Origin: a virus | Length of the DNA: 64,000 nucleotides | Strand: one strand, 5' to 3' | IMG/VR virus record: IMGVR_UViG_3300020057_000001 | Coordinates: 32,001 to 96,000 of that record | Shown here: positions 2,277 through 52,243 of the stretch, one piece after another | How the letters are laid out: each line of letters opens with the position of its first letter | How positions within the stretch are numbered: the first letter of the stretch is position 1 | Notes under the pieces: model-generated | Database searches by the model: none | What the model saw: only the letters and a program-made list of their open reading frames with translations | What the model was told of the DNA's origin: nothing | Translations under genes and position numbers: made by a program

Positions 2277-2303
2277 GTATCGTCAGGGTCTGTAAAAACT
2301 TTA
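2277..2303 (-). promoter_or_regulatory. sigma28/FliA-like promoter
   Basis: Minus strand TAAAGTTT-N11-GACGATAC upstream of 2040..2249. Confidence 0.7.
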
Positions 2304-2363
2304 ACACTATTTTGGAACAAGTCAAAAATAAAAGACTTGACGGCGCTAAACTTTAGTTAATTT

Positions 2364-2870
2364 TCATTGTCTTTGCTTCAGGAACGCGTCCACCATGTCA
2401 AACCAATAGTTGAGAAGCTGTAGGTGAGAAGGCAAGGTCGGGCTCATTACAGACGTATCGTCTTGCGTGTGGTCGAGGTTGTTGTAGGCGTGTCCGCACT
2501 CATGCCAAAGCAAAACTTTTCTTGTCTCGTAGCTTGCGGATTCCCAAAAAGCGCGTTTTAAATAAATAGTTCCAGACCCTACAAGCGATTTTCCGTTTAG
2601 TGTTCGGTAAGAGGCAAGTCCCACAGTTTCGGGACTTGATGTAGGTAGGTTGGCAAAGTTGTCGACTACTAAGATCTGCTTGACGACACCCGCTACATAT
2701 ACAGGATTATGCTTGTTCATATCCAAAAACTCGTTGAGCAGTTCTCTGATTTCAGGATGATTTTCAGGAACCTGTGCGGGTCTTGGAGCGTCTAAAAAGA
2801 GTGTGACGGAGGGCTCTTCGCCTCCACACGCTGTGAGAAAGACGGCTAGAACTAGCAGTAGTATTTTCAT
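2364..2870 (-). CDS. Lipoprotein zinc metallopeptidase (metzincin/matrixin-like)
   Basis: Lipobox LTAC; HECGHAYNNLDH followed by Met-turn SVMSP. Confidence 0.75.
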   Translation of the reverse strand: MKILLLVLAVFLTACGGEEPSVTLFLDAPRPAQVPENHPEIRELLNEFLDMNKHNPVYVAGVVKQILVVDNFANLPTSSPETVGLASYRTLNGKSLVGSGTIYLKRAFWESASYETRKVLLWHECGHAYNNLDHTQDDTSVMSPTLPSHLQLLNYWFDMVDAFLKQRQ

Positions 2871-2903
2871 TCTGTTTCCCGTGAGATGTCTAAGTTTTGA
2901 AAC

Positions 2904-3230
2904 TTATTGTTTTGGTGAGCCGTTTGCGCTAAAGCGCTTAATCGTTTTACCTAAAGAGCCTGCGGCACTTAGCTCTAGCTGCATGCCATCCGAAGGTGCT
3001 TCGTCGTAGAACGCCCAAAGCTCGTCACAGGTATCTAGAAAGCTCATGCCCGCCACCATACCTAGAATCCGTTCTTCTGGGTTGGTGTCGTCGAGCGCTT
3101 GGGGAAGGTAGGCGTGAGGAGCATAGGGCGCGTAGCCTTGGAGTACTGCTTCGCGACAATACATCAAGGCATTTTTTACATTTCTGTAGGGGTCAGCGGC
3201 AAAGGGCGAACATATAAACACACGTTTCAT
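2904..3230 (-). CDS. DUF4406/nucleoside 2-deoxyribosyltransferase-like Rossmannoid protein
   Basis: VFICSPF, PYAPH, CDELW and S.GM..E motifs. Confidence 0.65.
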   Translation of the reverse strand: MKRVFICSPFAADPYRNVKNALMYCREAVLQGYAPYAPHAYLPQALDDTNPEERILGMVAGMSFLDTCDELWAFYDEAPSDGMQLELSAAGSLGKTIKRFSANGSPKQ

Positions 3231-4018
3231 GTTGAGATTCCCATTAAGTATTCGAAGGCTTTTTCTGCTTGCATTGGAACCACTGCGTTACCGAGTCGCT
3301 TAATTCTGTCCATCCGAGAGGGAACCCCATAAATACCTCTGCCCATAGTGGGCTTAACAATGCGCCCGTTGGCACTGATGAATTCGTGATTTGCTGATAT
3401 TTTGAATTTCGTCCAAGGGGTAAATTCACAAATGCAGTCAGCGCTAGGCTGTTCCTTCGGTACTCTGACGGATGAGCGCCGTCTCTGTAATCCCTGGCTG
3501 CTAACGTCGGATATACTGTAAGCCAGGCAGAACCAACGTTCCCGCTTGTGTGGTGCTCCGACTTCTTGAGCGGATAGCATACACCAGCGACTATCATACC
3601 CTGCCTTGGTAAGTTCTTCGAGCACTCGATCCATTCCCCGTGTTCTGATTGCTGGGACGTTTTCAAGGAATATGAACGCGGGCTTGATCTCTTCGGCCAA
3701 GCGCATGATCTCGAAAAATAATCCACTTCGCTTTCCGTCCAAGATTCCTGCGCCTTTTCCAGCGACGGAGATATCCTGGCAGGGGAACCCTGCGACAATG
3801 ATGTCAATGACGGTGTCGAAGTGTTTTCCGGTGAGTGTAGAGATGTCGTCCCAAATCGGTGCTGCTTTGATGCTTTGATCACCCATTCGTGATAAGAGTA
3901 CAGACTGAGCGTGTCGGTCTTGTTCACAGTAAGCAATTGTGTTGATGTATTCTCTAAGCGCAAGGGTGTTTCCGCCGATGCCGCTAAATAAATCCAAGCC
4001 ATTTAATTTTTCCTTCAT
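3227..4018 (-). CDS. DNA cytosine-C5 methyltransferase, alpha chain (motif IX absent)
   Basis: LDLFSGIGG (I), GFPCQ (IV), ENV (VI), HKRERWF (VIII), LGNAVVP (X). Confidence 0.9.
   Translation of the reverse strand: MKEKLNGLDLFSGIGGNTLALREYINTIAYCEQDRHAQSVLLSRMGDQSIKAAPIWDDISTLTGKHFDTVIDIIVAGFPCQDISVAGKGAGILDGKRSGLFFEIMRLAEEIKPAFIFLENVPAIRTRGMDRVLEELTKAGYDSRWCMLSAQEVGAPHKRERWFCLAYSISDVSSQGLQRRRSSVRVPKEQPSADCICEFTPWTKFKISANHEFISANGRIVKPTMGRGIYGVPSRMDRIKRLGNAVVPMQAEKAFEYLMGIST
3244..4002 (-). CDS. Overlapping alternate-frame polypeptide carrying C5-MTase motif IX (putative beta chain)
   Basis: 252-codon frame nested in the MTase; ends in LLSPLWAEVFMGFPLGWT, matching motif IX. Confidence 0.65.
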   Translation of the reverse strand: MAWIYLAASAETPLRLENTSTQLLTVNKTDTLSLYSYHEWVIKASKQHRFGTTSLHSPENTSTPSLTSLSQGSPARISPSLEKAQESWTESEVDYFSRSCAWPKRSSPRSYSLKTSQQSEHGEWIECSKNLPRQGMIVAGVCYPLKKSEHHTSGNVGSAWLTVYPTLAARDYRDGAHPSEYRRNSLALTAFVNLPLGRNSKYQQITNSSVPTGALLSPLWAEVFMGFPLGWTELSDSVTQWFQCKQKKPSNT

Positions 4019-4030
4019 GCCGCGACCTCT

Positions 4031-4561
4031 TTACAACCGAACAATTCCTACACTCGAAAACGCTTCTTTAAACTTTTCACTTTCGTCTACAGAACCCGCA
4101 ACATAGATAATGGCATTCCCATGGGAAGGCGAGGCATGCGCTCCGTGTTGGGAATCAAACCGAATTCTCTTAGCAGGAATACAGAACGAAAACTCAGCCA
4201 TGCTGGGTACGCCCTTCCCTTGTGAGTTTTGGAAAGCTTCCAAGCTAAAGGCTAAAAAGATAGCGTGCTTTAGGTGCCCCGATGCTTTGTAGCGCATGAG
4301 CTTTTGCCAGAACAAAGACATGTTCGACTTGTTGCCCGTTTTTCCGCCGGGGGGATTGAGAAAGATAGAGCAGTCGATAGGCCATTCTGTCGTCAATCCG
4401 CCTTGTTCTTGATTGATAATCGTAGTGGCACCCACTCTAGCGTTGCCAAAAACGTCAGAGGCAGGGTCGAGGTCTATTGTCCCTAGCACCAGTTTCGCCT
4501 TTTCAACAATCAAAGTAGGGGTGTACCAAAGGTCAGTAGCAGAGCTGTGTAAGATGTTCAT
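4031..4561 (-). CDS. Phage DNA N6-adenine methyltransferase (Dam-like)
   Basis: DLWYTP, IDLDPAS, catalytic-type NPPG, RIRF. Confidence 0.75.
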   Translation of the reverse strand: MNILHSSATDLWYTPTLIVEKAKLVLGTIDLDPASDVFGNARVGATTIINQEQGGLTTEWPIDCSIFLNPPGGKTGNKSNMSLFWQKLMRYKASGHLKHAIFLAFSLEAFQNSQGKGVPSMAEFSFCIPAKRIRFDSQHGAHASPSHGNAIIYVAGSVDESEKFKEAFSSVGIVRL

Positions 4562-4860
4562 TCAACCGCGCCCACATCGCCCACGCGCAGCTCGTTTTCA
4601 CAAGGACCCATGACAGTGTATTCAGCCGATCCAACCTTGGAAACCAAGCTTCGAAACGGAATCTCTTCACCAAGCTCAGTAAGGACAACAAAACGACTCT
4701 CGGAGATCGACACAACCACTCCTCGCAGCGACCGTAGTACGTTCTTCCCTGTGCTCATTGAAAGAAGCAAAGTGTCCCCTTGCTCAAAGTATTCTGGATG
4801 GCTCGGGTCTTGTAAAAAATTTACAGCGTTTCCCTTAAGTAGTTCAGGCGTCGAGTTCAT
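4558..4860 (-). CDS. Hypothetical protein
   Basis: ORF coupled by ATGA-type overlap within the operon. Confidence 0.55.
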   Translation of the reverse strand: MNSTPELLKGNAVNFLQDPSHPEYFEQGDTLLLSMSTGKNVLRSLRGVVVSISESRFVVLTELGEEIPFRSLVSKVGSAEYTVMGPCENELRVGDVGAVE

Positions 4861-5545
4861 TCAATTCTCCACTATCAATTCGTAGTTTTAGCTCTTCCAT
4901 GGCGTTATCTTTTAACACTTTCTCTGCTACTATTTCAGTAACTTCACTGTAGGCATCGGTCAGCAACACGGCAGACTTTAGTCTCCATCTTAAAAAATCT
5001 ATTTTCTTTAGGAATCTTTTAAAGTCTTCTGGTACATGGTGCGTATTCATAGTCGCGTCTTTAAGATACAGGTCTTGCCACCTCGACGGGATCTCAACAA
5101 CGTCTAGATTTCCGCCAGTCATGTCTAACCAGTCGAGCGCAAGAATGACCTCTATTTTTTCTTCTGCCGCTAGCTTAAGCAGGAGGCAGTCACATATTGC
5201 TACTTGCTTCTCTTTAGAAAGAGCACTGTAGGCCGCGTTTTCAATCATTAGCGGGTTCGCCCACACCTCGACAAGCACCGCGTCTAGCACTTCTCTAGGC
5301 GCTTCGGTGGAATCTAGCTTTTTTTCTACTGCCATTTCGCATTCGTCGTAAAGCTGGAGTACCCGATAGTCTTGCTTGCAGCACAGCGAGATGTACTCAA
5401 ACGTTTTATCAGCTAGTACGTCCATGCTCCAGCGTTCGTGCTGCTCCTCGATCTCCCACTTAACGTAGAGGTCTAGAAGGTCGTAGCCTCTTTGCGACCT
5501 TGGGGAAAGCTTTACGTACTTGGGGTGCTTGAATATTCGTGCCAT
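4844..5545 (-). CDS. Hypothetical protein
   Basis: 233-aa ORF with AAGGA RBS. Confidence 0.65.
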   Translation of the reverse strand: MARIFKHPKYVKLSPRSQRGYDLLDLYVKWEIEEQHERWSMDVLADKTFEYISLCCKQDYRVLQLYDECEMAVEKKLDSTEAPREVLDAVLVEVWANPLMIENAAYSALSKEKQVAICDCLLLKLAAEEKIEVILALDWLDMTGGNLDVVEIPSRWQDLYLKDATMNTHHVPEDFKRFLKKIDFLRWRLKSAVLLTDAYSEVTEIVAEKVLKDNAMEELKLRIDSGELNELDA

Positions 5546-5570
5546 GGTAATCCTTTTTCAAACGTCGAGA

Positions 5571-5607
5571 ACTTGAATGTCTTCGGTAACAGTGCGGTAG
5601 ACTTTAG
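5571..5607. repeat. 37-bp direct repeat, copy 1 (duplicate of the helicase 3' end; contains a sigma28-like promoter)
   Basis: acttgaatgtcttcggtaacagtgcggtagactttag identical to 6433..6469; minus strand reads TAAAGTCT-N11-ACCGAAGA. Confidence 0.95.
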
Positions 5608-5612
5608 AAGGT

Positions 5613-6386
5613 CTACCTCAGAAGGAGCTGAATATTAAGCTCAAGCCCCCCCGTCGACCAGCCGCCCACGTGGATGCCGACCAATCGCCCAGCACCGTCA
5701 AAAACGGGCGCGCCGCTGGAACCGCCCGCAGCGGCAGCGTCGGTTATCATCGCATTGCTCCAATAGACGCCCCCTCCTGAGTAGCTCTCGTCCGTCACTG
5801 ATCCGGCGGCGAATTGCACATCGTTGGTCAAGTCTAGCGGAAAAGATGCTGTGACAGTCAAATCCCCTAATTTCGGAGCGTAGTCTTTAGATTCGCTGAA
5901 CCCCTGCAACGCAAGTCCCGCAGTGTTCCAAGCGATTCCCGAAATTCGTGTAACGTCGCGCGAGCCATCTTGAAAAGCCGTACCACCCGCGCCTACAAGA
6001 GTTGGGCCGGAGTAGTAGAGCATGTTGGTGCAACCGGAGGTTACATGATGTGCTGTAAGGATTCGCCCGTCGTGTAGTTTTGTCCCTGTGCCTCGCGTCG
6101 CATTTGAAACACATTGCAAGTCAAGAATTGACGCGCGGTTTGGGATAATAGCCTGTAAGATAGAGACCAACGCTGCTGTATAAGATTGACCGTCCTTTCC
6201 TGTAATACCTGTATTTCCTGTTTGACCGTCCTTTCCTGTAATACCTGTATTTCCTGTAATACCTGTATTTCCTGTTTGACCGGCCTTGCCGCTCTCTCCA
6301 GATGGCCCTGGCCTACCGTCCTTACCGTCTGATCCGCACGCTGCGAGAAATAAAGAAGCCAAAGTGTACAAGCGGGGGTAATTCAT
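5613..6386 (-). CDS. Lipoprotein with collagen-like repeat and trypsin-like serine protease domain
   Basis: Lipobox LAAC; Gly-X-Y run (GQTGNTGITGKD)n; LTAHHV and GGSSGAPV catalytic motifs. Confidence 0.85.
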   Translation of the reverse strand: MNYPRLYTLASLFLAACGSDGKDGRPGPSGESGKAGQTGNTGITGNTGITGKDGQTGNTGITGKDGQSYTAALVSILQAIIPNRASILDLQCVSNATRGTGTKLHDGRILTAHHVTSGCTNMLYYSGPTLVGAGGTAFQDGSRDVTRISGIAWNTAGLALQGFSESKDYAPKLGDLTVTASFPLDLTNDVQFAAGSVTDESYSGGGVYWSNAMITDAAAAGGSSGAPVFDGAGRLVGIHVGGWSTGGLELNIQLLLR

Positions 6387-6419
6387 AATGTTCTCCTAAT
6401 AGCCTAATCGGCGGTTGTT

Positions 6420-7856
6420 TCAAACTTCTAGCACTTGAATGTCTTCGGTAACAGTGCGGTAGACTTTAGCTCTTTGTTGAGAGTACCCTAAGAATTTATC
6501 TCGATACCCGTAACCTTTCAAGGTGACGTCAAAGAAATATACGGCGTCCTTACCAGGACTCAGGCGAAGCCCTCGTCCTAGCACTTGTCTTGTCAAAGCT
6601 TCGCCGGAAGTATTCACAACTGATATCATGGCGTCTATGGAGGGTACGTCAATCCCAGTTCCCAACAATGCACTATTAGAGATCAGCGTGCCTACCTTCC
6701 CGTCTTTAAACATTTTGAAAGGGTGCCGAAACCCGCTATGCGCAACCATATGCTTTGTGCCGTAGCGCTCATTGTAAGCAGTGGCGAATTTCTCCCCTGG
6801 CTCTCTTGTCTTAAAGAGCACAAGAGTTCTCAGCCCTCTGTCTTCTAGAGCCTTCAGGGTGTCACAAAGATAATTTATGGCCGCAGACGAGCTGGCAAGA
6901 ATGCCGTAAGCTTTTTGCTGGTTCATGGCATCGGGCAGGGTAGATTTTTGAGAGGAGAGATTAATCATAAAAATCCGAGGGGGTGTGAGAAACTTATGCT
7001 CAAGTCCCCAAGCGGAAGTCTTTTGATAAACTACAGGGCCGCAGAGGGCATGCACGCCTACGACTAGGCTGTCAGCTCTCACAGGAGTGGCTGTGAGCCC
7101 GTAGGCATGAGAAGCGCCCGAGCCGAGAATGGCCGCCGAGTAGGAATCCGATCCCACCCCATGGCATTCATCTGAAACCATGACATTGAACATATCGCAA
7201 TAGCCTTTCGCCGAAGCGATAGTGGTTACTGCGCAAGGAGCACCTTCTTTAAACTTTGCTCCGCCGCCTATGCCACACGTTCCCGGGATAACTTCCTTTA
7301 ATGCTTTAACAGTTTGTTCCACAAGGTCAATTGTAGGCACAATCACCAAAGGACGCTTCCCACTCTTAATAGCGGAGTGGCAAAGCATAGCGATGATCAG
7401 GGACTTACCCCCGCCCGTGAACACATCGAGCATTGCTCTCTTGAAAAGGAGCAGCTCTTTTACAGCTTCGACTTGGTAGGCTCTAGGCTGTTTGGCATAG
7501 GTGACGTCGAGCGGGTGGTATATGATTTCATTGTTCAGGTGTCCAGACACCTCCTCACAGAGCCACCACAGCCCTGGAGGACAGGACAGCGATCCGTCTG
7601 CGTTTTCGGCGTAGTAGCGAACGAGCAAGTTTTTCCCTAAGCGCCTTATTTCCCTCTCTACCCAACGCGCTTGCACGTCGCTGGTTGACGGCTTGTTTTT
7701 AAGGGCCTTGATTTGGTATTCCACGGAAGAATCTACGGCGGTGATAAAGCGTTTGAAAGGGTCGAGGTCAGCACCTGTGACAATGAGTTCCTGCCCGTCG
7801 GGTCTTAGGGTTCCTTTAGTAAACGGAAAAGCCGTAAATGATTCAATTTTTTTCAC
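6420..7856 (-). CDS. Superfamily 2 DNA helicase (UvsW/ResIII-like)
   Basis: PRAYQ, TGGGKS, DECH, LTATP, TGIDVP, QVLGRGLR. Confidence 0.9.
   Translation of the reverse strand: MKKIESFTAFPFTKGTLRPDGQELIVTGADLDPFKRFITAVDSSVEYQIKALKNKPSTSDVQARWVEREIRRLGKNLLVRYYAENADGSLSCPPGLWWLCEEVSGHLNNEIIYHPLDVTYAKQPRAYQVEAVKELLLFKRAMLDVFTGGGKSLIIAMLCHSAIKSGKRPLVIVPTIDLVEQTVKALKEVIPGTCGIGGGAKFKEGAPCAVTTIASAKGYCDMFNVMVSDECHGVGSDSYSAAILGSGASHAYGLTATPVRADSLVVGVHALCGPVVYQKTSAWGLEHKFLTPPRIFMINLSSQKSTLPDAMNQQKAYGILASSSAAINYLCDTLKALEDRGLRTLVLFKTREPGEKFATAYNERYGTKHMVAHSGFRHPFKMFKDGKVGTLISNSALLGTGIDVPSIDAMISVVNTSGEALTRQVLGRGLRLSPGKDAVYFFDVTLKGYGYRDKFLGYSQQRAKVYRTVTEDIQVLEV
6433..6469. repeat. 37-bp direct repeat, copy 2 (within the helicase 3' end; sigma28-like promoter)
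   Basis: Identical to 5571..5607. Confidence 0.95.
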
Positions 7857-8044: not shown

Positions 8045-8071
8045 TTATCGCCACGCGTTCTTCAAACTTTA
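8045..8071 (-). promoter_or_regulatory. sigma28/FliA-like promoter
   Basis: Minus strand TAAAGTTT-N11-GGCGATAA heading the helicase/MTase operon. Confidence 0.75.
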
Positions 8072-8119: not shown

Positions 8120-8126
8120 GTAAAAT
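8120..8126 (+). promoter_or_regulatory. GTAAAAT putative late-promoter element
   Basis: 30 nt before the protease ATG; same heptamer precedes nine other + strand genes. Confidence 0.5.
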
Positions 8127-9324: not shown

Positions 9325-9326
9325 CC

Positions 9327-10503: not shown

Positions 10504-10530
10504 TAAAGTTTTGTGGCAATTGTGCGATAA
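10504..10530 (+). promoter_or_regulatory. sigma28/FliA-like promoter
   Basis: TAAAGTTT-N11-TGCGATAA upstream of 10567. Confidence 0.75.
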
Positions 10531-10566: not shown

Positions 10567-10851
10567 ATGCGCATTCCCCCGAAGTCTCGTACTACTCTTG
10601 ATCCTGCATCCGTGGCAGAAATAAAAGCTGTGGTGCCAAGTGGGTCTGAAGACACCGCAGCTGCTAACAAAGAAGATTTGCTTCAGATGGCGAGAAAAGC
10701 CGAAAGCAGACCTCACTGGCAGAATCCTCTGGCACCTGTTCTTAGCAACTACACAAGAGCTACTAGCCAGGGCTACGACCCCGACTTTGCGGCGAAGATT
10801 AAAGAGTTGGCGCCAAGTTGGTTTAAAGGCGCATCGACCGCAAAGAAATAA
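10567..10851 (+). CDS. Hypothetical protein
   Basis: GAAGGAG RBS. Confidence 0.65.
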   Translation: MRIPPKSRTTLDPASVAEIKAVVPSGSEDTAAANKEDLLQMARKAESRPHWQNPLAPVLSNYTRATSQGYDPDFAAKIKELAPSWFKGASTAKK

Positions 10852-10877: not shown

Positions 10878-11114
10878 ATGATTCTCACTGTCAAAGTCTC
10901 CGTAAATAGAACCCACTTGCTCTGGGCAGCCTGCTTTCTTCTATGCCGCAATGAAAAGCTGTCAAAGTCCGCGGTGCTTAAGTTTTTGCGTGAGCAAATG
11001 GCAAGGTTTGGCGAAGACGAAAACTCGTTGTGCGGGTTGACGTGGCAACAGGATTACTGCGACCAACTCCCAGAAGCTGAAACATGGCTGAACAAAGCCT
11101 TTGATCGCGAGTAG
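10878..11114 (+). CDS. Hypothetical protein
   Basis: ORF with AGGT RBS. Confidence 0.55.
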   Translation: MILTVKVSVNRTHLLWAACFLLCRNEKLSKSAVLKFLREQMARFGEDENSLCGLTWQQDYCDQLPEAETWLNKAFDRE

Positions 11115-13163: not shown

Positions 13164-13190
13164 TAAAGTCTGAAAGCAAAACGGCGATGA
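13164..13190 (+). promoter_or_regulatory. sigma28/FliA-like promoter
   Basis: TAAAGTCT-N11-GGCGATGA upstream of the Hef-like gene. Confidence 0.7.
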
Positions 13191-13203: not shown

Positions 13204-14934
13204 GTGACTATGGCGGCGGGGAAAAAATTAACAGCTGAAGACGTAGCAAAAGTCGCACAAGCAAAAAACCCAAACCTGCGCTTGGTCGAGAGTTCTTACG
13301 TTGACTTATCCACCCTGTGCATCTGGGTGGAAGAGGGTTGGGGTGAGTTTGAGCGAAAGCCTTCTATCATTCTTTATTCGAACAGCGTGTATCACCCTGA
13401 ACACGGCAGGTTGCGTAAAAATGCAATTTTGGCAAAAGCGCAACAAAAACCGGAAAGCAAACAAAAGCGTAAAACCACTAACCTTGCCAAGTATGGACAC
13501 GAATACATTTCACTCTGCCCACATGTACGTAGTAAAGTTTGTGCAACTAACTTAGAACGTTACGGTCATGAAACCCCGCTTTTGAACGCCGACGTTCAAG
13601 CTAAGATTAGTGCAACTAACTTAGAACGCTACGGTCATGAAAACCCCCTTTTGAACGCCGACGTTCAAGCTAAGATTAGAGCAACTAACTTAGAGGCGTA
13701 TGGCGTAGAAAACGTCCTGTCGAGTAGTCTTATACAAGACAGAGTAAAGACTACTAATCTACAGCGCTACGGGTTTGCAAACGCTGTGCAAGCCGAGGCG
13801 GTTCAGAGTAAAACGAAAAACACTAATTTACAGAGGTATGGCGCTGAATACGGTCTGTCAAACCCTGATGTGCAGCGTAAACGGAGACTTACTAACGTTG
13901 CGCGCTACGGGTCTGCGCACGCTACATTACACCCTGCGGTCAGAGCAAAACTAAGTGCTACCAATATCGCGCGATACGGCCACCAAAGTAGTTTCGGTAA
14001 TTCAGACGTCCAGAAGAAAATTTACAGAACTAAGATGCTTCGCGGGCTATACAAACAGTCTAAAGGTGAACTAGAACTGAGAGACTTTTGTAAAACACTG
14101 GACCCCGACGCCCGTACAACCATGGCGTATTTAAACAAGAAAGCTTTCCAAATTGATATTTTTCTGCCTTCTAAAAATATATGCATCGAATACAATGGGA
14201 TGTTTTGGCATTCCGAGGGGAATAAAAAAAATTACTCCGAAAAACACTTAGACAAGACGAAAGCATGCGCTTTACAAGACAGACGTCTCATACACATTTG
14301 GGAAACCGAATGGCACAACAAGCGCCCTCAAGTGGAAAACTACATCCGAAGCGTAGCGGGTATTTTTGAAAGAAGGATTCCTGCAAGAAAATGCCTAGTA
14401 AAAGAAGTTACTGATAAGGCGCAAGTTAAAGCGTTTCTTGACAGCAATCACTTATTAGGCGCGTGCCCGTTTTCAAAAGCGGTGGGCATCTTCTTGAATG
14501 AGGAACTCGTAGGTGTTGCTCTTTTGGGGAGGCACCATCGAACAAACGTCCTTAACATTGCTAAGCGATTTGCTTTTTTAGCGGGTGTTCAGGTGATTGG
14601 CGGCGTGAGCCGTCTTACCAAACACCTTTTAGACGTCTGCGAATCCGATTCCCTCGTCACTTGGGCCGATGTCAGGCTAGGAGCGGCGTCGGTCTACACG
14701 TCCGCAGGGTGGACCTTAGATTCCACGTCGCGCCCTGACTATTTTTACTGGCACGAATCTCAAAAAAGAGTTGTTTCAAAGCAGCATTTTAAAGACCACC
14801 GAAAAAGTTCAACCGGTGTTTCCGAAAAAGATTTTGCTAAAACCCGGAGATGCCTACGGATCTGGGACTGTGGAAAACATAGGTTTCGTATCTATAAAGG
14901 CGGAATTCCTACATGCTCGCTTTCATCCCCGTAG
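13204..14934 (+). CDS. Hef-like putative homing endonuclease: TNLERYG repeats, Vsr/PD-(D/E)xK nuclease, C-terminal GNAT-like domain
   Basis: About eight 23-aa TN..RYG repeats; IDIFLP...IEYNGMFWHS; HIWETEW; IWDCG. Confidence 0.7.
   Translation: MTMAAGKKLTAEDVAKVAQAKNPNLRLVESSYVDLSTLCIWVEEGWGEFERKPSIILYSNSVYHPEHGRLRKNAILAKAQQKPESKQKRKTTNLAKYGHEYISLCPHVRSKVCATNLERYGHETPLLNADVQAKISATNLERYGHENPLLNADVQAKIRATNLEAYGVENVLSSSLIQDRVKTTNLQRYGFANAVQAEAVQSKTKNTNLQRYGAEYGLSNPDVQRKRRLTNVARYGSAHATLHPAVRAKLSATNIARYGHQSSFGNSDVQKKIYRTKMLRGLYKQSKGELELRDFCKTLDPDARTTMAYLNKKAFQIDIFLPSKNICIEYNGMFWHSEGNKKNYSEKHLDKTKACALQDRRLIHIWETEWHNKRPQVENYIRSVAGIFERRIPARKCLVKEVTDKAQVKAFLDSNHLLGACPFSKAVGIFLNEELVGVALLGRHHRTNVLNIAKRFAFLAGVQVIGGVSRLTKHLLDVCESDSLVTWADVRLGAASVYTSAGWTLDSTSRPDYFYWHESQKRVVSKQHFKDHRKSSTGVSEKDFAKTRRCLRIWDCGKHRFRIYKGGIPTCSLSSP
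13543..13690 (+). repeat. Near-perfect 69-bp tandem repeat within the TNLERYG array
   Basis: gcaactaacttagaacg...gttcaagctaagattag repeated with period 69. Confidence 0.85.
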
Positions 14935-15161: not shown

Positions 15162-15188
15162 TCAAGTTTTAAAAGAAACTTGCGATAC
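15162..15188 (+). promoter_or_regulatory. sigma28/FliA-like promoter
   Basis: TCAAGTTT-N11-TGCGATAC upstream of 15211. Confidence 0.7.
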
Positions 15189-16916: not shown

Positions 16917-16943
16917 TAAAGTCTGACCAACTCTTGGCGATAA
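16917..16943 (+). promoter_or_regulatory. sigma28/FliA-like promoter
   Basis: TAAAGTCT-N11-GGCGATAA upstream of 16966. Confidence 0.75.
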
Positions 16944-29228: not shown

Positions 29229-29465
29229 TTAGTACTCGGAGGGTTCGTGCCAGACTTTAGTTAGTTCTTCCGAGAACCGCCCGCTGGTAGCGTACTCGGG
29301 GTCTTGCAGTGTAATGTCGGGCGAGATGGTGCAGCCTAGCGCCCTCGCTTGATCAAGCGCATGGTTGACAGCAGAAGGCGCATAAGACATGCGACCGTCT
29401 GCGTACCTACGAGCCCAAAAACCCAACTCTTCAACTAAACGTCTTAGTGCGTCTTCATGTGTCAT
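29229..29465 (-). CDS. Hypothetical phage protein
   Basis: RYADGRMSYAPS motif; operonic overlap. Confidence 0.55.
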   Translation of the reverse strand: MTHEDALRRLVEELGFWARRYADGRMSYAPSAVNHALDQARALGCTISPDITLQDPEYATSGRFSEELTKVWHEPSEY

Positions 29466-30121: not shown

Positions 30122-30148
30122 GTTTCGGACGTGTCCGTTCAGACTTTA
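30122..30148 (-). promoter_or_regulatory. sigma28/FliA-like promoter
   Basis: Minus strand TAAAGTCT-N11-TCCGAAAC. Confidence 0.6.
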
Positions 30149-30706: not shown

Positions 30707-31125
30707 TCTTTCTCCTTCATTAGGTAGTCTAGATAATCTTCTTGCCCTGCCGCAATATACGCTAGCGTCTCATAAGGAATTGATGCGTAAGCCTGTTCGT
30801 GCGACATGCCCTTCATGCGGTTTTTAATATAGTACGAAAGATAGGAACTGTAAAACTTAAGCCAGCCAATTTCTCGCACCTGCAAGCAGTGAACATTTTC
30901 GTGGGCGCGCACCTTGGGGTCAATCTCTACCTCAAAGAAAAACACGATAGGGTAAAGTACGAACCCGCTCGGTATTTTCTTACTGCTAGTGGGTAGATGT
31001 ACAAACACCGAGCACGCTTCTCCTTTTAGTGGAGGCAGAAATTTTAGCTCAACCATTGAAAGGTTAAGCCACAGTAACAACGCTATTAGTATCCACCGCT
31101 TCATAGTACTCCAAGTCCTTAACAA
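30703..31125 (-). CDS. DUF4157-like zincin with N-terminal hydrophobic segment
   Basis: AHENVHCLQ...G...FY..Y...AY..IPYE.LAY. Confidence 0.65.
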   Translation of the reverse strand: MLRTWSTMKRWILIALLLWLNLSMVELKFLPPLKGEACSVFVHLPTSSKKIPSGFVLYPIVFFFEVEIDPKVRAHENVHCLQVREIGWLKFYSSYLSYYIKNRMKGMSHEQAYASIPYETLAYIAAGQEDYLDYLMKEKE

Positions 31126-31433
31126 TATTCCGTGGAATCGTCTTCGTCCGTAGGGGTGGGTGCAAGAGGTTCAAAGAATTTTGCTGGGTTTGCCGTGCCG
31201 TGTACCTGTTTTAAGTTGGTGACGTCTAAGTTGATACCAAGCGGCACGCGGTCGCCTTTCATATTGCAGCACGCAATTCCCGTCACGTGTGCGCCCGAAG
31301 AAACCGATGTAGTTTTAAAAATTTTAAAGACTAAACGGCTACGTCCCATTTCATGAGTGGCGTAGAACACCTGGGTAGTTTTAGGGTTTTGGAGCTGTAT
31401 GCGGGCGTGTGTGAAACATTCTGTCAAGTTCAT
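31119..31433 (-). CDS. Hypothetical protein
   Basis: AGGAG RBS. Confidence 0.55.
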   Translation of the reverse strand: MNLTECFTHARIQLQNPKTTQVFYATHEMGRSRLVFKIFKTTSVSSGAHVTGIACCNMKGDRVPLGINLDVTNLKQVHGTANPAKFFEPLAPTPTDEDDSTEYC

Positions 31434-31468: not shown

Positions 31469-31494
31469 TTATCGGCAGGAATTTTCAAACTTGA
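31469..31494 (-). promoter_or_regulatory. sigma28/FliA-like promoter
   Basis: Minus strand TCAAGTTT-N10-GCCGATAA (perfect -10, spacer one base short). Confidence 0.65.
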
Positions 31495-32374: not shown

Positions 32375-33865
32375 TCATTTCTTGCTTTGTTTGGGGAGCG
32401 TGTCCGGCTTTTTAACGTCTTTCAATTCGTTTATTGTTTCATGGTCAGCGTTCTCTAGCGCATTGTTAAACTCGTCGGTCTCATTCTTCGGATCGTAGCT
32501 GTAGTGCCCGATTTTTGAAATATTTACACCGTGGTGATTATTTAAGTGATCGATCACATCATTTGCAGCAGCCCTGTGGGTGCCTGTGACAAGAGACCCA
32601 TTCCCCATCTCACCATCGATCATGAAAGGCGGGATTTTGTTTTCACCTTTTATTTGAGACACGACCATTTGATGCACGTGCGGCCAATCGTGCACGACGT
32701 GGATCGGGTTGAAGTTTTGCGGATAATAAGGTTTCTGTGAGAATTTAGCAATAGTCTGTTTTAAAGCATGCGGTAAGTTGTTTGATTTTATGAGAGGGTT
32801 CTTCGGCGGTTTTGGAATTGCAATCTTTTTGGGAGCTTCAAAATCTGTTCCCGAACTCGATTCATCACGGGGATGCCCAACTTCGATATCTTTGCTGCTC
32901 ACTTTGAAGTGTGCCTCGGGGTGTGCGACGACGATTTCTTCTTCACTTGAATGGACTGGGTTGTGCCCTGGATAAAGTGAATGGCCGCCGGTGTGCAGCA
33001 CGTCTCTTAAGGGGACGTCCTTTTTCATGATGAGGTGGTGAGGGTGATCTTCTGAATCGTGCTCCCCCCGCCCTGTAGCGAAACGCGTAGCCATGTCACG
33101 ACTAAGAGACCAAGAGGACATGTGAGCCGAAGGGATTGTTACGGTTTTGTGGCGGTCCACTTTTGAAGCCTTCCCTACAGTGTAGGGGGACATACCGCCT
33201 TCGAGGTATTTTTCCTCGTCATGGTCTGTTACACCTAGTGAATCTTTCACCCGCTTTGCATAGCTTCCACCCACACCTCTATAGACCGTGATGTGCGGCT
33301 CGCCGTTAATCATTTTCTTGTTAATGTGGCTGTCGTTCATAATCGCTTTCTGTGAAGCAATCATGTGGTTAACGAGGTGAGGGGTTTGGTGCTTATGCTC
33401 GTCTGAGTGGCCCTTGTCACCTCTATGCGTTTCAATGTGTTCAGGCTCCCCCGTGTACATCGCTTTAATAGCCGCAAAATGGCTGGGCTCCACTTTTCTC
33501 TCGTATGAGTTCCAGAAGTCCCCAGATTGCTGCTCACCTTCCTCGGCGCCTCCACCTTGGTAGTTGGGGTGCGCTAAGATGGCTCCTGTGGAAAATTGCT
33601 CGTCAGGCGCGTGGCTCCATGCGTGTCTGAGTTGCTCTCTTGAGAGGTCCGGGTGTAGGTTGCCCGCTAAATTGTACAGTACATCCGATATTTGATCTTT
33701 GGGCGCGTGCTTCAGGTATTTTTCAACGTGACTTGGGGGAATAGGGTGTTCTTGTGCAGCAAGCATTTGAAAACCGCTGTGGTGTCTCAGTTTGTGTGCC
33801 ACTGCGATGGCTTTGTCCCAGTCCTGTGTCTGGGCGTAATGGTCTAAAAGTTGGTAGTCGTTCAT
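32375..33865 (-). CDS. Polyvalent protein: ADP-ribosyltransferase-like (R-S-E) domain plus ParB/Srx-like C-terminal domain
   Basis: VYRG, SSWS...A.RFA, EEEIVV; IPPFMID....LVTGTHRAAA. Confidence 0.6.
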   Translation of the reverse strand: MNDYQLLDHYAQTQDWDKAIAVAHKLRHHSGFQMLAAQEHPIPPSHVEKYLKHAPKDQISDVLYNLAGNLHPDLSREQLRHAWSHAPDEQFSTGAILAHPNYQGGGAEEGEQQSGDFWNSYERKVEPSHFAAIKAMYTGEPEHIETHRGDKGHSDEHKHQTPHLVNHMIASQKAIMNDSHINKKMINGEPHITVYRGVGGSYAKRVKDSLGVTDHDEEKYLEGGMSPYTVGKASKVDRHKTVTIPSAHMSSWSLSRDMATRFATGRGEHDSEDHPHHLIMKKDVPLRDVLHTGGHSLYPGHNPVHSSEEEIVVAHPEAHFKVSSKDIEVGHPRDESSSGTDFEAPKKIAIPKPPKNPLIKSNNLPHALKQTIAKFSQKPYYPQNFNPIHVVHDWPHVHQMVVSQIKGENKIPPFMIDGEMGNGSLVTGTHRAAANDVIDHLNNHHGVNISKIGHYSYDPKNETDEFNNALENADHETINELKDVKKPDTLPKQSKK

Positions 33866-36267
33866 TTGGCACCCCTGCGCCCAATCGCATGCGCAACTTC
33901 CCGAGCTTCATCCCAGTCCACGGTCACTTCGTTGTCTGATTTTTTTAGAGAAGGCCCCTTTTGCCTAAACTGCCTAAACTTCCAGAGGTGTTCGGCATCG
34001 TGGCTCGTAGAACCTGCCTCTAATGGAACTCTGAAATGTTCCTCTGCATAGTCGTACATTGCCGACGCAACCCCTTTACGCTGGTGCTGAGGAAACACCT
34101 CTGTCTCGTAAGACATAATGTGGTCGGTGGGCTTTTTAGAAAAAATAGGCACGCCCTCTGCGTCTTCGTTATTGTCCCAATCATGGTAACCTATGCTTGC
34201 AAATCCCGCATGGTTTCCTTGCTTATCGTGGGCATTAACGTAGATGCCGCCGTGTGGGGAAGTTGTGTGAGAGAGCGTGTAACCCTCTTTTTGCCAATCC
34301 CCATTTTCACCTTTGCCCAAAGCAGCGACCCCCACTTGCCCAGCACTCTTTTTTATCTCTGGCTGCGGTTCTAGCAGCGCATTCTTTTCAGGAAGTTGTG
34401 TAGTTTGGTGTGCGGTTTTCAACGAGCGTAGCACTGACGCGTATTTTGCAGCGGCATGCAAGACACTCGTCTCGTTTCCAAACTCTAGCTTAGCCATTGA
34501 GGAGTTTCTAGCAACACCTCCAACGCCCTTTTGCGAACTGTGGTCCGAGTGTCTGATTTTTGGATGGTCAAATGGGAAACGTATGTATCTTGAATTCGTT
34601 GTCTCTGCCTTTTCTTCCCCGTGAGGAATACCTGAATCTTTGAGTTGACTTAAAAAGGCGTCGCATTGCAGGCTGCGTGTCTTCTGAGACGCAATCGCAA
34701 AACCTTGTTTTTCAAATTCGTCAGGTTGGAGCCCTTGGATGTACGCATGAGCGGAAGGAAGATCAGGAAAGCTTTCGGTGACCCCCTTTTTATTAGAAAC
34801 TTTCACGGGTTTGTTTACGTGCTCCTCGAGCCAAATACTACGGGAGACGCCCAAAGGACGGTCCGCCGGTGTGAGCGGAACGTGAGTAATATGCAAAGGC
34901 TTACCCAAAAGTGCGTCTTTTTTGTGCGGGTGGCTGTTCCTCACGGAATAGTAATTTGACATTGCGCGAAGTTTTTGCAAGCCCGTGCCTGCTTTGTTCA
35001 AATCTTTCGCCCAAACAATCGGAGGTTTTAGTGGGTCGCCCTGCACAACTTTTCGCGTTTTCCCGTCCATCGTAGGCTCTGGTAAATCTTTCGCATTTAA
35101 TTTAGACCAAACCCGTTTCGCTGCGTTTGACGTTTTGCCGGTATCTGACGCAAGGCCGCCGTAATGATCTGCTAACTTTTGATAAACTTTTTGTCCTAGA
35201 CCCTTACCCCTGTGAGGCTTGTCTATGAAGGAATGAGACATATGCATCCCATCGTGGCTTTTGTCGTGAAATTCCGAGTGGTCGACTAAAAATTTCCCAA
35301 CCGTTTTGTTTTCGTGATGTAATTCCCAGTAGTGTCTTTTGGAAGTCCCCCGCTCTCCTGGTTCAGTCCAGTTTCTGTGATGGAGTGTATACCCGTTCCC
35401 AATTTCATGCATCGTGAGCCCTTGAGCGTCTTCAGCTTTGTTGAGCTTCTCGCCGTTCATTTTGGGAAACATTTTCAGTATCAGATTGTGTTTTGCAGCG
35501 ACGTGAAGGTTTTCTAGGATTTCTTTCGGTAAACGCGCATTCACACTAAACCACTTAAAGCCTAGAGCTTCCTTGTCAGGGTCGTTTTCGTTTGTTATTT
35601 TTTGCGGGACTTTCTCTAGTTCAACTAAAAACGCCTTGACCACTTTGCCGTTAGGTGTTTTGCACCTCAATTTAGCGTCTGTAATTTCAGCTAAGTCTTG
35701 TATGCCTGTCTCTTCCCTAAATTCCCTTATTGCGCCTTTTTCAAAATCTTCGCCGTTTTCGACGTGTCCGCCAGGAAAGGTCCACTTTTTATTGTCGTTT
35801 CTTTTCATCATGAGAAGCTTATTATCCGCTTTCACTGCAAGACACGCCACGCGGTTACTTTCCGATTTCCACAGGCGGGTAGACTTCTTGACAGGCTCCG
35901 TCGAGTAATCCTCAATTTCGCTTTGATGGACACGTTCAGGGTGACCGCCTAAAGTGTAGAAATTACCGCCGCCTTCTTGGAGACTTTTTCCATTGTCTAC
36001 GATTTGAAGCACTGGATACCACAAGCCCTTGTACTTCGCTGTGTGCCCTTTGGGAGCCTTGTTTGCATTTGCTTTAGCTCGTGCAATTGCGTCTGCAAGG
36101 CTTTTTGCAAGTGCCGGATAAGACTTTGTTAACTGCGTGGCAGTGCTCATTGCGCTTTTTGCGAGACGGCTATCGCCGAGCTTAAGAGCCTCCTCTGCAA
36201 TTTTGAGGGCTTCGCTAAAAGCTTTTAAAGCGTTTTGTTGAATTTGGGTAAGTGGTTGTTTTTGCAT
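33862..36267 (-). CDS. Polyvalent protein: Nudix hydrolase plus two GNAT acetyltransferase domains
   Basis: Nudix box PGGHVENGEDFEKGAIREFREETG; GNAT motifs HRGKGLGQKVY and HQRKGVASAMY; GAGGGG RBS before MQKQP. Confidence 0.8.
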   Translation of the reverse strand: MQKQPLTQIQQNALKAFSEALKIAEEALKLGDSRLAKSAMSTATQLTKSYPALAKSLADAIARAKANANKAPKGHTAKYKGLWYPVLQIVDNGKSLQEGGGNFYTLGGHPERVHQSEIEDYSTEPVKKSTRLWKSESNRVACLAVKADNKLLMMKRNDNKKWTFPGGHVENGEDFEKGAIREFREETGIQDLAEITDAKLRCKTPNGKVVKAFLVELEKVPQKITNENDPDKEALGFKWFSVNARLPKEILENLHVAAKHNLILKMFPKMNGEKLNKAEDAQGLTMHEIGNGYTLHHRNWTEPGERGTSKRHYWELHHENKTVGKFLVDHSEFHDKSHDGMHMSHSFIDKPHRGKGLGQKVYQKLADHYGGLASDTGKTSNAAKRVWSKLNAKDLPEPTMDGKTRKVVQGDPLKPPIVWAKDLNKAGTGLQKLRAMSNYYSVRNSHPHKKDALLGKPLHITHVPLTPADRPLGVSRSIWLEEHVNKPVKVSNKKGVTESFPDLPSAHAYIQGLQPDEFEKQGFAIASQKTRSLQCDAFLSQLKDSGIPHGEEKAETTNSRYIRFPFDHPKIRHSDHSSQKGVGGVARNSSMAKLEFGNETSVLHAAAKYASVLRSLKTAHQTTQLPEKNALLEPQPEIKKSAGQVGVAALGKGENGDWQKEGYTLSHTTSPHGGIYVNAHDKQGNHAGFASIGYHDWDNNEDAEGVPIFSKKPTDHIMSYETEVFPQHQRKGVASAMYDYAEEHFRVPLEAGSTSHDAEHLWKFRQFRQKGPSLKKSDNEVTVDWDEAREVAHAIGRRGAK

Positions 36268-39163: not shown

Positions 39164-39190
39164 CTATCGGCTAGGCGGTCACGGACTTGA
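39164..39190 (-). promoter_or_regulatory. sigma28/FliA-like promoter
   Basis: Minus strand TCAAGTCC-N11-GCCGATAG, back to back with GTAAAAT at 39192. Confidence 0.65.
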
Positions 39191-39206
39191 GGTAAAATTT
39201 AACTAG

Positions 39207-46563: not shown

Positions 46564-46583
46564 TCATCAGAACAAGTAAAGGC

Positions 46584-47360: not shown

Positions 47361-47454
47361 TGTGTGTCCTTTTAATTGTTTAAACTGGTTAGGGTTTGCC
47401 GCTTTTAGTTCTGCTGTGAGTACTGGGTCGTAAGATCCGCTACCAACGCTTGCT

Positions 47455-48388: not shown

Positions 48389-48397
48389 GTTCAACGC

Positions 48398-48829: not shown

Positions 48830-48853
48830 AGACTGTACAAACTAAACAGGATA

Positions 48854-49024
48854 TTATTCTTTGTCATCAGGCTTGTCTTTCTTGAATATCTTCTCGTCGC
48901 AGTACAGATAGGCTAGCCGCAGTGCCTGCATGCGTATACCGATCAGCTCGGGGTTCATCTCTTTCGATTTCTTGATCTTCTTTAGCGTAAGACCCTTTTT
49001 TACTTTTACTTTGTCGTCACTCAT
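48854..49024 (-). CDS. Small basic protein
   Basis: ATGA overlap with the AAA gene. Confidence 0.5.
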   Translation of the reverse strand: MSDDKVKVKKGLTLKKIKKSKEMNPELIGIRMQALRLAYLYCDEKIFKKDKPDDKE

Positions 49025-50085
49025 GAAGATTTCCTTGCAAGTCCGAGTTTTCCAATCCGTACAGCGATGTAGTCCCAAGCCCAGTTTTGAGGGTCCAAGT
49101 CGGCTACATGCGCTAGCCCCGTAGGCCAGTGCTTTAGAGTATGCCTGAATTCTCCGTAAGAAAACATCCCCCTACACGTCTCAGGAAGAGCAGTAGTTAG
49201 CAGATAGTGTGCAGCCATCTCACTCTCCTGGCTCTGAAGATAGCCGATAGTCTCGTTCACAAGCCCTTTGGCTTCTAGCTGAGACACAGCTTCAAAATTT
49301 AACTGTGTGAGCGTCAGTGGAAACACAGTAGTCCTTTTGTCAACGATATCACAGTACTGTTGGAAACGTGCGTTCCCATGCTCTAGGCCCATTTTGCCTA
49401 CGAACACATGGCGAGTTTCATCTCGCGATAGCAGCCCTGTTTCCGCAATCTCAAGAGCTTGATCGAGTTGTCTTGGTGACTCGCTAAGTTTTACCCAAAC
49501 TTCCTCTCCCGATCCCGGCTCTTTAAAAAGCTTTGGGTGTTTCTGTAGCATCTCTGTTGCCAACTTCGACCGCATGGTGCGAGCCACTGCGTGGACGCTT
49601 GGAGCATGCACCACGTGTGTCACGCGTTTAATCACGGCATCCGGTAGGTCACGTACACCGATGTCCTCAGTCTCTAAGTTAGCAGCCGCAAGAATAAGGA
49701 CGTTGTCGGATAGCTTGTACGTATTCATAAATGTGCGATCGAGTAGCATTTCGGTAAACATTCCAAACGTCTGGTCGCTCATAGGCCGATTAAACTCGTC
49801 CAAAAACAACACGGTTTTGGGGACGACGTAGCCTGTGGACGGGTCGTCGCAGAGGTCCTTCACCCATTTGTCAGGGTACGGGATAAGTACCTTGTTTACT
49901 TCGTCTTTGTGTGGGATGCAAAGATTCAGCGGGTCGATATTTAATACGCGCCTCTCAATGTAGTTAAACCCGTGGTTTTGGGCAAACGCTTTTACTAGCG
50001 CAGATTTACCAAACCCGCTCGAACCATGTATCAGGATTGTCTGTTTGGTCTGGAAGTGGGCTAGAAACATGTTGTCGGTAATCAT
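49021..50085 (-). CDS. AAA+ ATPase (MoxR/dynein-related)
   Basis: GSSGFGKS, LFLDEFNR, AAAN, LPDAVIKR, SPR. Confidence 0.85.
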   Translation of the reverse strand: MITDNMFLAHFQTKQTILIHGSSGFGKSALVKAFAQNHGFNYIERRVLNIDPLNLCIPHKDEVNKVLIPYPDKWVKDLCDDPSTGYVVPKTVLFLDEFNRPMSDQTFGMFTEMLLDRTFMNTYKLSDNVLILAAANLETEDIGVRDLPDAVIKRVTHVVHAPSVHAVARTMRSKLATEMLQKHPKLFKEPGSGEEVWVKLSESPRQLDQALEIAETGLLSRDETRHVFVGKMGLEHGNARFQQYCDIVDKRTTVFPLTLTQLNFEAVSQLEAKGLVNETIGYLQSQESEMAAHYLLTTALPETCRGMFSYGEFRHTLKHWPTGLAHVADLDPQNWAWDYIAVRIGKLGLARKSS

Positions 50086-50116
50086 AAAAATCCTCTCGGT
50101 TTATTTCCTAGTGTAG

Positions 50117-50143
50117 TGTTCGGAGGGAGCGCGCAAAACTTGA
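50117..50143 (-). promoter_or_regulatory. sigma28/FliA-like promoter
   Basis: Minus strand TCAAGTTT-N11-TCCGAACA. Confidence 0.55.
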
Positions 50144-50168
50144 GAGGAATTCACATATTTTTTAGCAA

Positions 50169-51299
50169 TCATATTTTTATTAAATGAAACCTATGCTGCG
50201 TTCTCACCAAATCCCACGCAATCTCTAAGTCGGATAGCACAACGACATCGAGGTTGTTTCCGTGGTCTTTATAAATTTTGTTCATCATGGCGTCCGAGAT
50301 TACTGTTCCACCCCCGCCTACAAACGCTTTAGCATCCAAACTAAATGGTCGGATATCCGCATCAAACGTGTAAGTCGCTAGAAGCTTACCGCTCGCTTCC
50401 ATGTGCTTGCAGCCTGCGTAGAGTTGAGAGAGTGTCTCAGGATTACACATAGATCCCGACACGTCAAGTAGTAGGACCGCTTGCCTTGTCCTTCCAGGTA
50501 CTCTCTTAACGCCTGGAAGATACCCGTAGGCGTGGTTAATTGCGCTGCACGTGTAATGCGACTGTGGGTTTTTGAGGCTTAGCCTTTTTGTTACAATCCG
50601 CACTTGCTCTAGCGCATCGCGGATTGTCTTCATAAGTTTCGCCCTAGGGTCAAACGTCAGGTCGCTGTCCATAGCTTGGTGACCAGCGGTAGTCCCCATT
50701 CTTTGCGCAACGTCTTTCGCTGTCATAAGCTTATGCCTAATTAAGTCACCCACACCGTCTTCAATTTCGTGCTCGTCAAAAGACGGGGGGAGTTCGTCCG
50801 CAATGTCTAAGATCCGGTTGTAATAGTACACCCAGTCTTGGTTTCGCTCCAAGACGACGTGGGTGACGTTTGAGTGCTCTTTTGCCTTCCGGTCTATGGT
50901 CTCCTGCAAAGATTCCACGGTAACCATACCACCCAGCACGTCCTTAGTGGCTTGGGCTTCCGTTGGAAATAACCTGATAAGGTCTTCATGCAACGCTGCG
51001 TCCATGGCCGCGTTCGCAATCCGCTTTTCAAACTTAGACATCTTTTGCATCTCTAGGTAAGTGGCTATCTGGTATATGTGGCGGATTTCGTGGCATAAGA
51101 CAAACAAAAACGTATCTTTGCTTGAGCACACGGCGTCACCCAAGGTGATCGAGATCCCGCTTGGAGTAAACCGCACACTGGCAGACGGCGTCTCCGAATT
51201 GTGTGACACCGACACTTGCTGGAGTAGCGCGAGGGTGTGATACATCCGCATTCTTGCCAGGGTCGTTACCGCGTGTTCGCGCAAGTTACTAATGTCCAT
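50169..51299 (-). CDS. DUF2201-type metallopeptidase plus VWA domain protein
   Basis: HEIRH, NAAMDA, MIDAS DVSGSM, GGGGT, LSD. Confidence 0.85.
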   Translation of the reverse strand: MDISNLREHAVTTLARMRMYHTLALLQQVSVSHNSETPSASVRFTPSGISITLGDAVCSSKDTFLFVLCHEIRHIYQIATYLEMQKMSKFEKRIANAAMDAALHEDLIRLFPTEAQATKDVLGGMVTVESLQETIDRKAKEHSNVTHVVLERNQDWVYYYNRILDIADELPPSFDEHEIEDGVGDLIRHKLMTAKDVAQRMGTTAGHQAMDSDLTFDPRAKLMKTIRDALEQVRIVTKRLSLKNPQSHYTCSAINHAYGYLPGVKRVPGRTRQAVLLLDVSGSMCNPETLSQLYAGCKHMEASGKLLATYTFDADIRPFSLDAKAFVGGGGTVISDAMMNKIYKDHGNNLDVVVLSDLEIAWDLVRTQHRFHLIKI

Positions 51300-52189
51300 T
51301 ACAAATCCCTTTCATCACGAAAGCCCAAAAACACAGGAAACCGCGGGCGACCTTCCGATCCCACACCCTGAAACTTAAACTTCACATGTCGACCTAGCAG
51401 CCGGTCTTTCTCCGACCAGTAAGACTTTCGAAGACCGTGGGTAAGCCCATCACCGGTGCCGAGCTTAAACTCCAAGCCCTTCCACGCCACGACTAACGCG
51501 CCGAGGGTATCTTTACCGACCATGCCGTCTTGGTGAGACGATCGTTTCGTAGTCCCCAGCTCAGACACTTGTACAACGTTGGTATTCTGCATTTGTTCTT
51601 CATACCCGACGACCAGACCTTCATCGTCCTCGAAAAACTTAACTTTAAGCAAAATTTCTTCTTTTAAAGTAGAGCGTCCGAATTTGTAGCGTCCTTTTGG
51701 ATCTCTTAGCATCGCGCCCTCGAGCCCAAGGTCGACCCAATGCTGTGCTTGAGCAAGCGCCTCTTCGGCACCGGTCACAGTGAAATAAGACAGAAAACAT
51801 ACATGCGGGGGTTCCTTCGCCGCAAGAATGCGTGCTAAGCCCATCGCCCGCTCTTCATAATGTGCTTCGCCTATCTGGTCAAAAACCCAATACGTAAAAA
51901 ATGGAGTTCCGGCTACGCTCATGACCGCTGATTGTGTTTGGTTGAAGTCACAACCGTTCACCATGATTTCACCGTCCATGCCGTCAAGCTCGGGCATCAA
52001 GTAGACAAGAGCTTCGAGTTGCTCGCGTATGTATGTGTTTGGGATAGGCTTCAGTTTGCGGGATACGGCTTTACCGTTCAACAGGATGCAACGTATACCA
52101 TCCAGCTTTGTCGAGATAAGCTTTGGGTATTTGAGTTTTGAGAGGTCGTCGGCTTTTTCAGCGAGTAAAGGTTTAAACTGTTTCGTCAT
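51299..52189 (-). CDS. ATP-dependent DNA ligase
   Basis: KLDGIR, DGEI, FD, EGAMLRD, LLKVK, PRFPVF. Confidence 0.95.
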   Translation of the reverse strand: MTKQFKPLLAEKADDLSKLKYPKLISTKLDGIRCILLNGKAVSRKLKPIPNTYIREQLEALVYLMPELDGMDGEIMVNGCDFNQTQSAVMSVAGTPFFTYWVFDQIGEAHYEERAMGLARILAAKEPPHVCFLSYFTVTGAEEALAQAQHWVDLGLEGAMLRDPKGRYKFGRSTLKEEILLKVKFFEDDEGLVVGYEEQMQNTNVVQVSELGTTKRSSHQDGMVGKDTLGALVVAWKGLEFKLGTGDGLTHGLRKSYWSEKDRLLGRHVKFKFQGVGSEGRPRFPVFLGFRDERDL

Positions 52190-52216
52190 AACGCACTCCA
52201 TTAAGGTCTATCAGAG

Positions 52217-52243
52217 GTATCGCCAGTCTGTGCCAAAACTTGA
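52217..52243 (-). promoter_or_regulatory. sigma28/FliA-like promoter
   Basis: Minus strand TCAAGTTT-N11-GGCGATAC upstream of the ligase. Confidence 0.7.

Follow-up and report, generated by a model that had tools for sequence, protein, structure and literature searches.

Phage early transcription is, in the textbook picture, driven by sigma-70 or by a phage polymerase. Large lytic phages such as SPO1 (gp28/gp34), phiEco32 (gp36) and T4 (gp55) also have dedicated, repeated promoter classes, each serving a temporal or functional set of genes; these phages encode their own sigma factors, and their motifs are unlike the consensus of host alternative sigma factors. Among bacterial promoters, the class 3 flagellar promoters of E. 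coli and Salmonella follow the sigma-28 consensus TAAAGTTT-N11-GCCGATAA (PMC2859248), and in Bdellovibrio bacteriovorus a sigma-28-type signal serves as a global programme beyond the flagellar genes, with TTAAG-N16-CCGATA carried by 92 of 140 attack-phase promoters (PMC3627812). Here, we describe a 64-kb stretch of DNA (bases 32001-96000 of the 160,071-bp IMG/VR virus record IMGVR_UViG_3300020057_000001; hereafter the window) in which non-structural genes are preceded by a recurrent sigma-28-type element, which we call class A; a second signal, GTAAAAT, is called class B. Full-text literature searches returned no published description of a phage using sigma-28 promoters.

The complete record has overlapping ends and a completeness rating of 100%, with 179 predicted proteins and a guanine-cytosine (GC) content of 48.6%. 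The initial annotation of the window had listed 13 class A sites. On re-reading the window we recover all of them as described and on the same strands, with a spacer of 11 nucleotides (nt) in 12 sites and of 10 nt at 31469-31494; the list was incomplete, as it lacked sites at 59985-60011(-) and 4952-4981(-) and weak ones at 63057-63086(-) and 29232-29260(-). A strict pattern, T[AC]AAGT[TC][TC]-N12/13-CGA[TA]NN, matches the window 14 times, where 100 Markov-2 shuffles average 0.23 matches and never exceed 3; in the whole genome it matches 20 times, against 1.0 (maximum 3). With a weight matrix made from the aligned sites, whose spacer columns were left out of scoring, 23 sites genome-wide score at least 19, compared with 0.2 in shuffles. 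Fifteen of these 23 are mostly intergenic when 6.3% would be expected (binomial P ~3e-13), this 6.3% being the intergenic share of the genome as left by our own gene call. A co-oriented start codon lies at most 100 nt away in 18 of the 23, and the remaining strong sites mostly fall in the final codons of the gene before them or within doubtful open reading frame (ORF) calls. Their spacer is 11 nt in 21 cases, 10 nt in one and 12 nt in one. By these counts the genome would hold about 25-30 copies of a flagellar-type promoter. The enrichment over shuffled sequence, which had been proposed as a check, together with the intergenic, gene-directed placement, supports the view that the sites form a real genome-wide class of sigma-28-type promoters ahead of non-structural genes.

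Read from upstream to downstream, the class A consensus consists of an A-tract, cT[A/C]AAGT[C/T]T, N11, and [G/T][C/G]CGA[T/A]A[A/C], usually followed 6 nt on by TAGR. The -35 element conforms to T[A/C]AAGT[C/T]T in 19/19 aligned sites, with T1, A3, A4, G5 and T6 invariant; it is directly preceded by C in 16 of the 19, and the A-rich tract lies 5-10 nt upstream of it. In the -10 element the CGA is invariant. TAGG or TAGA stands downstream of the -10 octamer, usually 6 nt on, in 19 of 33 sites from the genome and its relatives (8% background), which is suggestive of a transcription start with T at -1 and A at +1. Class A sites are always co-oriented with the gene and stand 19-67 nt ahead of start codons with a strong Shine-Dalgarno sequence, so leaders would be short. 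Class A promoters are compact, at about 60 nt including the ribosome-binding site.

The element matches the E. coli sigma-28 consensus across both octamers and the spacer, agreeing at 15 of 16 positions. It shares with the class 3 flagellar promoters the octamers, the 11-nt spacer, T1, A3 and G5, and the CGA core. In the E. coli aer promoter, single changes at -35 T1, A3 or G5 bring a 4- to 10-fold loss of activity, which then stands at or close to that seen with no FliA (PMC2859248), and in the phage these three bases never vary. The phage sites differ from their flagellar counterparts in having A or C at -35 position 2, C or G before the CGA, and TAGR at the predicted start, and in preceding replication and accessory genes rather than flagellar ones. 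We consider it very improbable that the motif is instead bound by a DNA-binding protein of the phage, or that it serves in recombination or packaging. Such a role would be compatible with the presence of helix-turn-helix (HTH) proteins of no assigned role in the phage. Against it stand the asymmetry of the element, its two parts at a fixed spacing, its position 19-67 nt ahead of co-oriented starts and its near-complete agreement with a known sigma consensus.

The genes behind class A sites encode a superfamily 2 (SF2) helicase, an ATP-dependent ligase, an AAA ATPase, a UvsX-like recombinase block, a DnaB-like protein, a DUF7487/Mom-like protein, cytosine methyltransferases, lipoproteins and many small ORFs. 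The initial annotation had stated that no fibre or head gene lies behind them, which agrees with our finding that the fibre-like gene of 620 amino acids (aa) downstream of 10504-10530 has its own GTAAAAT signal.

Which protein reads class A? The initial annotation had offered host FliA or, as the alternative, a phage-encoded sigma-28-like factor located outside the window. We searched the complete genome for the latter and did not find it: six-frame searches with Sigma70_r2 (PF04542), r4 (PF04545), r4_2 (PF08281), FliA_WhiG (TIGR02479) and sigma70-ECF (TIGR02937), models that match 11 to 14 of 14 bacterial and archaeal control genomes, gave nothing significant, the best match being one HTH at E 0.036. 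The same five models found no sigma-70-family domain in six frames of two partial relatives, roughly half of the 179 predicted proteins were scanned with Pfam or PHROG and yielded no sigma factor, and FlgM was not found in the genome. For RNA polymerase, there was no match to PF00940 (T7-like, single-subunit) or PF00623 (multisubunit, beta'-type), although the control for PF00940 matched nowhere, which makes that search a weak one. The lack of a detectable sigma-70-family domain in the complete genome favours host FliA.

The single HTH match lies in a 246-aa protein (genome 31688-32428, + strand; L002:1282-2022), the 3' part of whose gene forms window 1..428. The gene stands between the portal and MuF-like genes. 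The protein is kept in all relatives and has 63 homologues in metagenomes; the family shows four invariant cysteines followed by an HTH of the sigma-region-4/LuxR type, and one homologue matches Sigma70_r4_2 at 3e-5. Its confident AlphaFold2 (AF2) model (predicted local distance difference test, pLDDT, 81) gave no Foldseek match at E <=0.001, and VIA-align returned only rows of Z 3.5-4.8, with sigma region 4 at Z 3.5-4.1. We rejected this Cys4-HTH protein as a hidden sigma factor given that it has no sigma-2 domain and matches sigma region 4 weakly.

A phage sigma factor too divergent to recognize, either made during infection or carried in the virion, and reading class A as a middle class with sigma-28-like specificity, appears unlikely to us. 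Many large phages, SPO1 and phiEco32 among them, encode their own sigma for promoter classes that are not sigma-70; the motif is conserved within the family, which is what inheritance together with a sigma gene would predict; a large part of the proteome lacks a family assignment; and the TCAAG and GCGA variants might suit such a factor. Against this, the six-frame searches of the complete genome gave no r2, r4, FliA or ECF signal, and the only sigma-region-4-like HTH protein failed as a candidate. A factor with the exact specificity of class A should also resemble FliA and hence be detectable, and it is unlikely that an unrelated protein would converge on both octamers and the spacer. Finally, canonical sigma-70 promoters (at least 10 of 12 matches) are not enriched, with 12 in the genome against 15-22 in shuffles and a similar picture in the relatives, so we see no obvious early class of host type that would precede class A and from which a phage sigma gene could first be expressed. 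The phage shares a dedicated promoter class with SPO1, phiEco32 and T4 but differs from them in that no sigma gene is detectable and that its motif is the flagellar one of the host.

We therefore regard host RNA polymerase, carrying a sigma-28-family factor that also comes from the host, as the best-supported reader of class A, and probably the correct one. Host polymerase carrying a group-3 sigma of this family (FliA/SigD/WhiG) would bind cT[A/C]AAGT[C/T]T through sigma region 4 and, 11 nt on, [G/T][C/G]CGA[T/A]A[A/C] through regions 2 and 3, while the A-rich tract ~5-10 nt upstream of the -35 could be an UP element contacted by the alpha subunit. The transcription start would fall on the A of TAGR, ~7 nt past the -10 octamer, giving leaders of roughly 12-60 nt. 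Class A would thereby drive the genes for the helicase, ligase, recombinase, DnaB-like helicase and DNA modification, arrays of ankyrin-like genes and small accessory genes, while the structural genes would run from GTAAAAT. Since no phage sigma or polymerase gene is detectable, the non-structural programme would be active only in cells with free, active sigma-28, which in most bacteria are flagellated, motile cells. We infer the reader protein, start site and motility link from these sequence features, and the early or middle timing from gene content only.

The motif is shared by relatives of the phage. Homologues of its helicase, 36-42% identical, are found on large contigs with a common gene order and a GC content of 34-43%. 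In a 70-kb IMG/VR contig (G2, GC 43%), 6 matrix sites are found against 0-1 in shuffles, and CGATAAG is the top enriched upstream 7-mer, standing ahead of 9 genes. The motif also occurs in a 71-kb ENA contig (L010) and a 35-kb contig (G1, GC 37%), and sparsely in two further contigs; the -10 octamers of the relatives read CCGATAAG. Its persistence in distant relatives is in keeping with reports that sigma-28 specificity is conserved among bacteria. At the orthologous helicase promoter, the phage has a class A site, G2 a hybrid (TTGATTTT-N11-GTCGATAAG), and L010 and G1 a sigma-70-like TTGACT-17 arrangement, a swapping of promoter types most easily explained if host factors serve both.

Several points weigh against a host sigma-28 reader. 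One relative (L105, GC 55%) has no site in 18.8 kb. That the host has a sigma-28 factor or flagella is an assumption, and the promoter reading is motif-based. Phage sigma factors, for example T4 gp55, can be too divergent for profile searches; the individual scans covered about half of the proteins, and several giant ORFs belong to no family. A third of the sites have C at position 2 of the -35 (TCAAG), and G precedes the CGA as often as C does; given these TCAAG and GCGA variants a reader of slightly different specificity is possible.

As to the host, the timing of infection to a motile state had initially been linked to a predatory bacterium. In this special case, the host would be a Bdellovibrio-like predator whose FliA runs most of the free-swimming attack phase, and the phage would rely on the sigma that dominates the one cell stage open to it, an idea we find improbable. 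The GC content of B. bacteriovorus is roughly 50%, close to that of the phage. The prevalence of a FliA-type motif in its attack-phase promoters (92/140; PMC3627812) speaks for this host, and those promoters resemble class A in their use beyond flagellar genes, but they are host chromosomal and their -35 is written TTAAG with N16. Nothing in the genome points to such a host: no tRNAs were found in it, no near or distant cultured relatives of the phage were found, and the lipoprotein gene and a helicase profile gave no match in 185,579 species genomes. The motif itself does not discriminate between phyla because the sigma-28 consensus is similar across many of them.

In our estimate the chances are even that these phages represent a lineage of large freshwater phages that lacks a sigma gene, places its whole non-structural programme on host sigma-28 and has its infection gated by motility or by a predator's attack phase, in what would be a widespread and so far undescribed strategy. 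IMG metagenome 3300010354, the source of one relative, is presumably a lake set. If the proposal is true, reliance of a lytic phage on an alternative host sigma that is active only in certain cell states would make the success of infection depend on host physiology (motility, FlgM export), non-motile or fliA-mutant cells would be predicted to be non-productive hosts, and the promoter class would provide a sequence signature to recognize such phages in metagenomes.

The class B signal, GTAAAAT, is the most enriched 7-mer of upstream regions (~26-fold), and 19 of its 22 genomic copies lie at most 180 nt upstream of + strand genes, all 19 on the + strand. Several of the genes that follow have virion-protein matches and most others sit among these, suggesting that class B marks structural genes, an assignment made partly on weak or absent family hits. 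The 263-aa gene after the copy at 8120, for instance, belongs to an apparent head-gene block with weak family hits only. No conserved -35 partner for GTAAAAT was found in the phage genome, whereas in the relatives a TTGACT accompanies it at 17 nt, so that it looks like a sigma-70-type -10 element. The late promoters of T4-type phages (-10-only, TATAAATA) are comparable as a single -10-like element before structural genes without a conserved -35; they differ in that GTAAAAT is paired with TTGACT in the relatives and that no gp55 or gp33 homologue was found. On the - strand at window 32375-36267, an 801-aa Nudix + GNAT protein follows a 496-aa protein without a PHROG match, and upstream of these genes there is only a variant of the class B signal, GATAAAAT.

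Class A and class B sites in the window (positions counted from its first base; ORF lengths in amino acids; scores are those of the class A weight matrix)
Feature	Position	Strand	Gene(s) behind the site	Score and remarks
Class A, TAAAGTTT-N11-GACGATAC	2277..2303	-	69-aa ORF 2040-2249	22.4; start 27 nt on
Class A, 12-nt spacer	4952..4981	-	ORF 4558-4860 and methyltransferase operon down to 2364	24.2; within 3' end of 233-aa gene
Class A	5580..5606	-	233-aa ORF 4844-5545	23.7
Class A	6442..6468	-	lipoprotein gene 5613-6386	within helicase 3' end; exact duplicate of 5580-5606
Class A	8045..8071	-	37-aa ORF and SF2 helicase 6420-7856	29.0
Class A	10504..10530	+	94-aa ORF 10567-10851 and 78-aa ORF 10878-11114	25.1
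Class A	13164..13190	+	574-aa DUF7487/Mom-like gene 13210-14934	24.7
Class A	15162..15188	+	74-aa and 157-aa ORFs	27.4
Class A	16917..16943	+	187-aa ORF and lipoprotein gene	29.2
Class A, weak	29232..29260	-		
Class A	30122..30148	-	small-ORF block 29804-30088 and beyond	26.7
Class A, 10-nt spacer	31469..31494	-	small ORFs 31119-31433 down to 30163	28.1
Class A, weaker	39164..39190	-	67-aa and 54-aa ORFs	17.8; back to back with GTAAAAT at 39192(+)
Class A	50117..50143	-	AAA ATPase gene 49021-50085	22.8
Class A	52217..52243	-	ATP-dependent DNA ligase 51299-52189 and 376-aa nuclease-like gene	27.7
Class A, strict	59985..60011	-	421-aa gene, further on ClpP-like protease and UvsX-like recombinase	24.8
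Class A, weak candidate, 12-nt spacer	63057..63086	-	DnaB-like gene 61935-62996	17.0
Class B, GTAAAAT (TTGACT-18-TAAAAT)	8120..8126	+	263-aa gene	divergent from helicase promoter
Class B, other copies	starts 11166, 15912, 20836, 21865, 25797, 28465, 36314, 39192, 52376	+		

The sites at 5580-5606 and 6442-6468 are two copies of a single exact repeat and hence not independent. In a 96%-identical strain (L102:1300-1420), the 233-aa gene comes directly after the helicase, and the strain lacks both the collagen/trypsin-like lipoprotein gene and the second copy of the promoter (window 5556-6469), which fits a recent insertion that duplicated the promoter. The same strain keeps the site at 4952-4981(-).

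Beyond the window, two arrays of at least 16 short ankyrin-like genes, with gaps of 7 nt between the genes, are preceded by one strong and one weak class A site (L004:301-3939, L005:1-3115, L009:5016-5715). A giant ORF of up to 2268 aa (L004:6443-13249) diverges from the class A promoter at the head of the methyltransferase/ankyrin operon; scanned in its 1916-aa reading from 7499, it belongs to no Pfam or PHROG family, and two more ORFs, of 950 and 861 aa, likewise lack one. In L008:10894-10970 (genome 145394-145470), a GC hairpin and T-run come ~25 nt after a strong class A site and could either delimit a very short RNA or be the terminator of the upstream operon placed just after the promoter. 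A hybrid promoter, CTTGACTTT-N11-TGCCGATAC, precedes the gene of a DnaD-like replication initiator (L006:14554-14800; genome 110054-110300), and the GGTTTTGATACCAGGGTACCCC repeats upstream of it resemble origin iterons.

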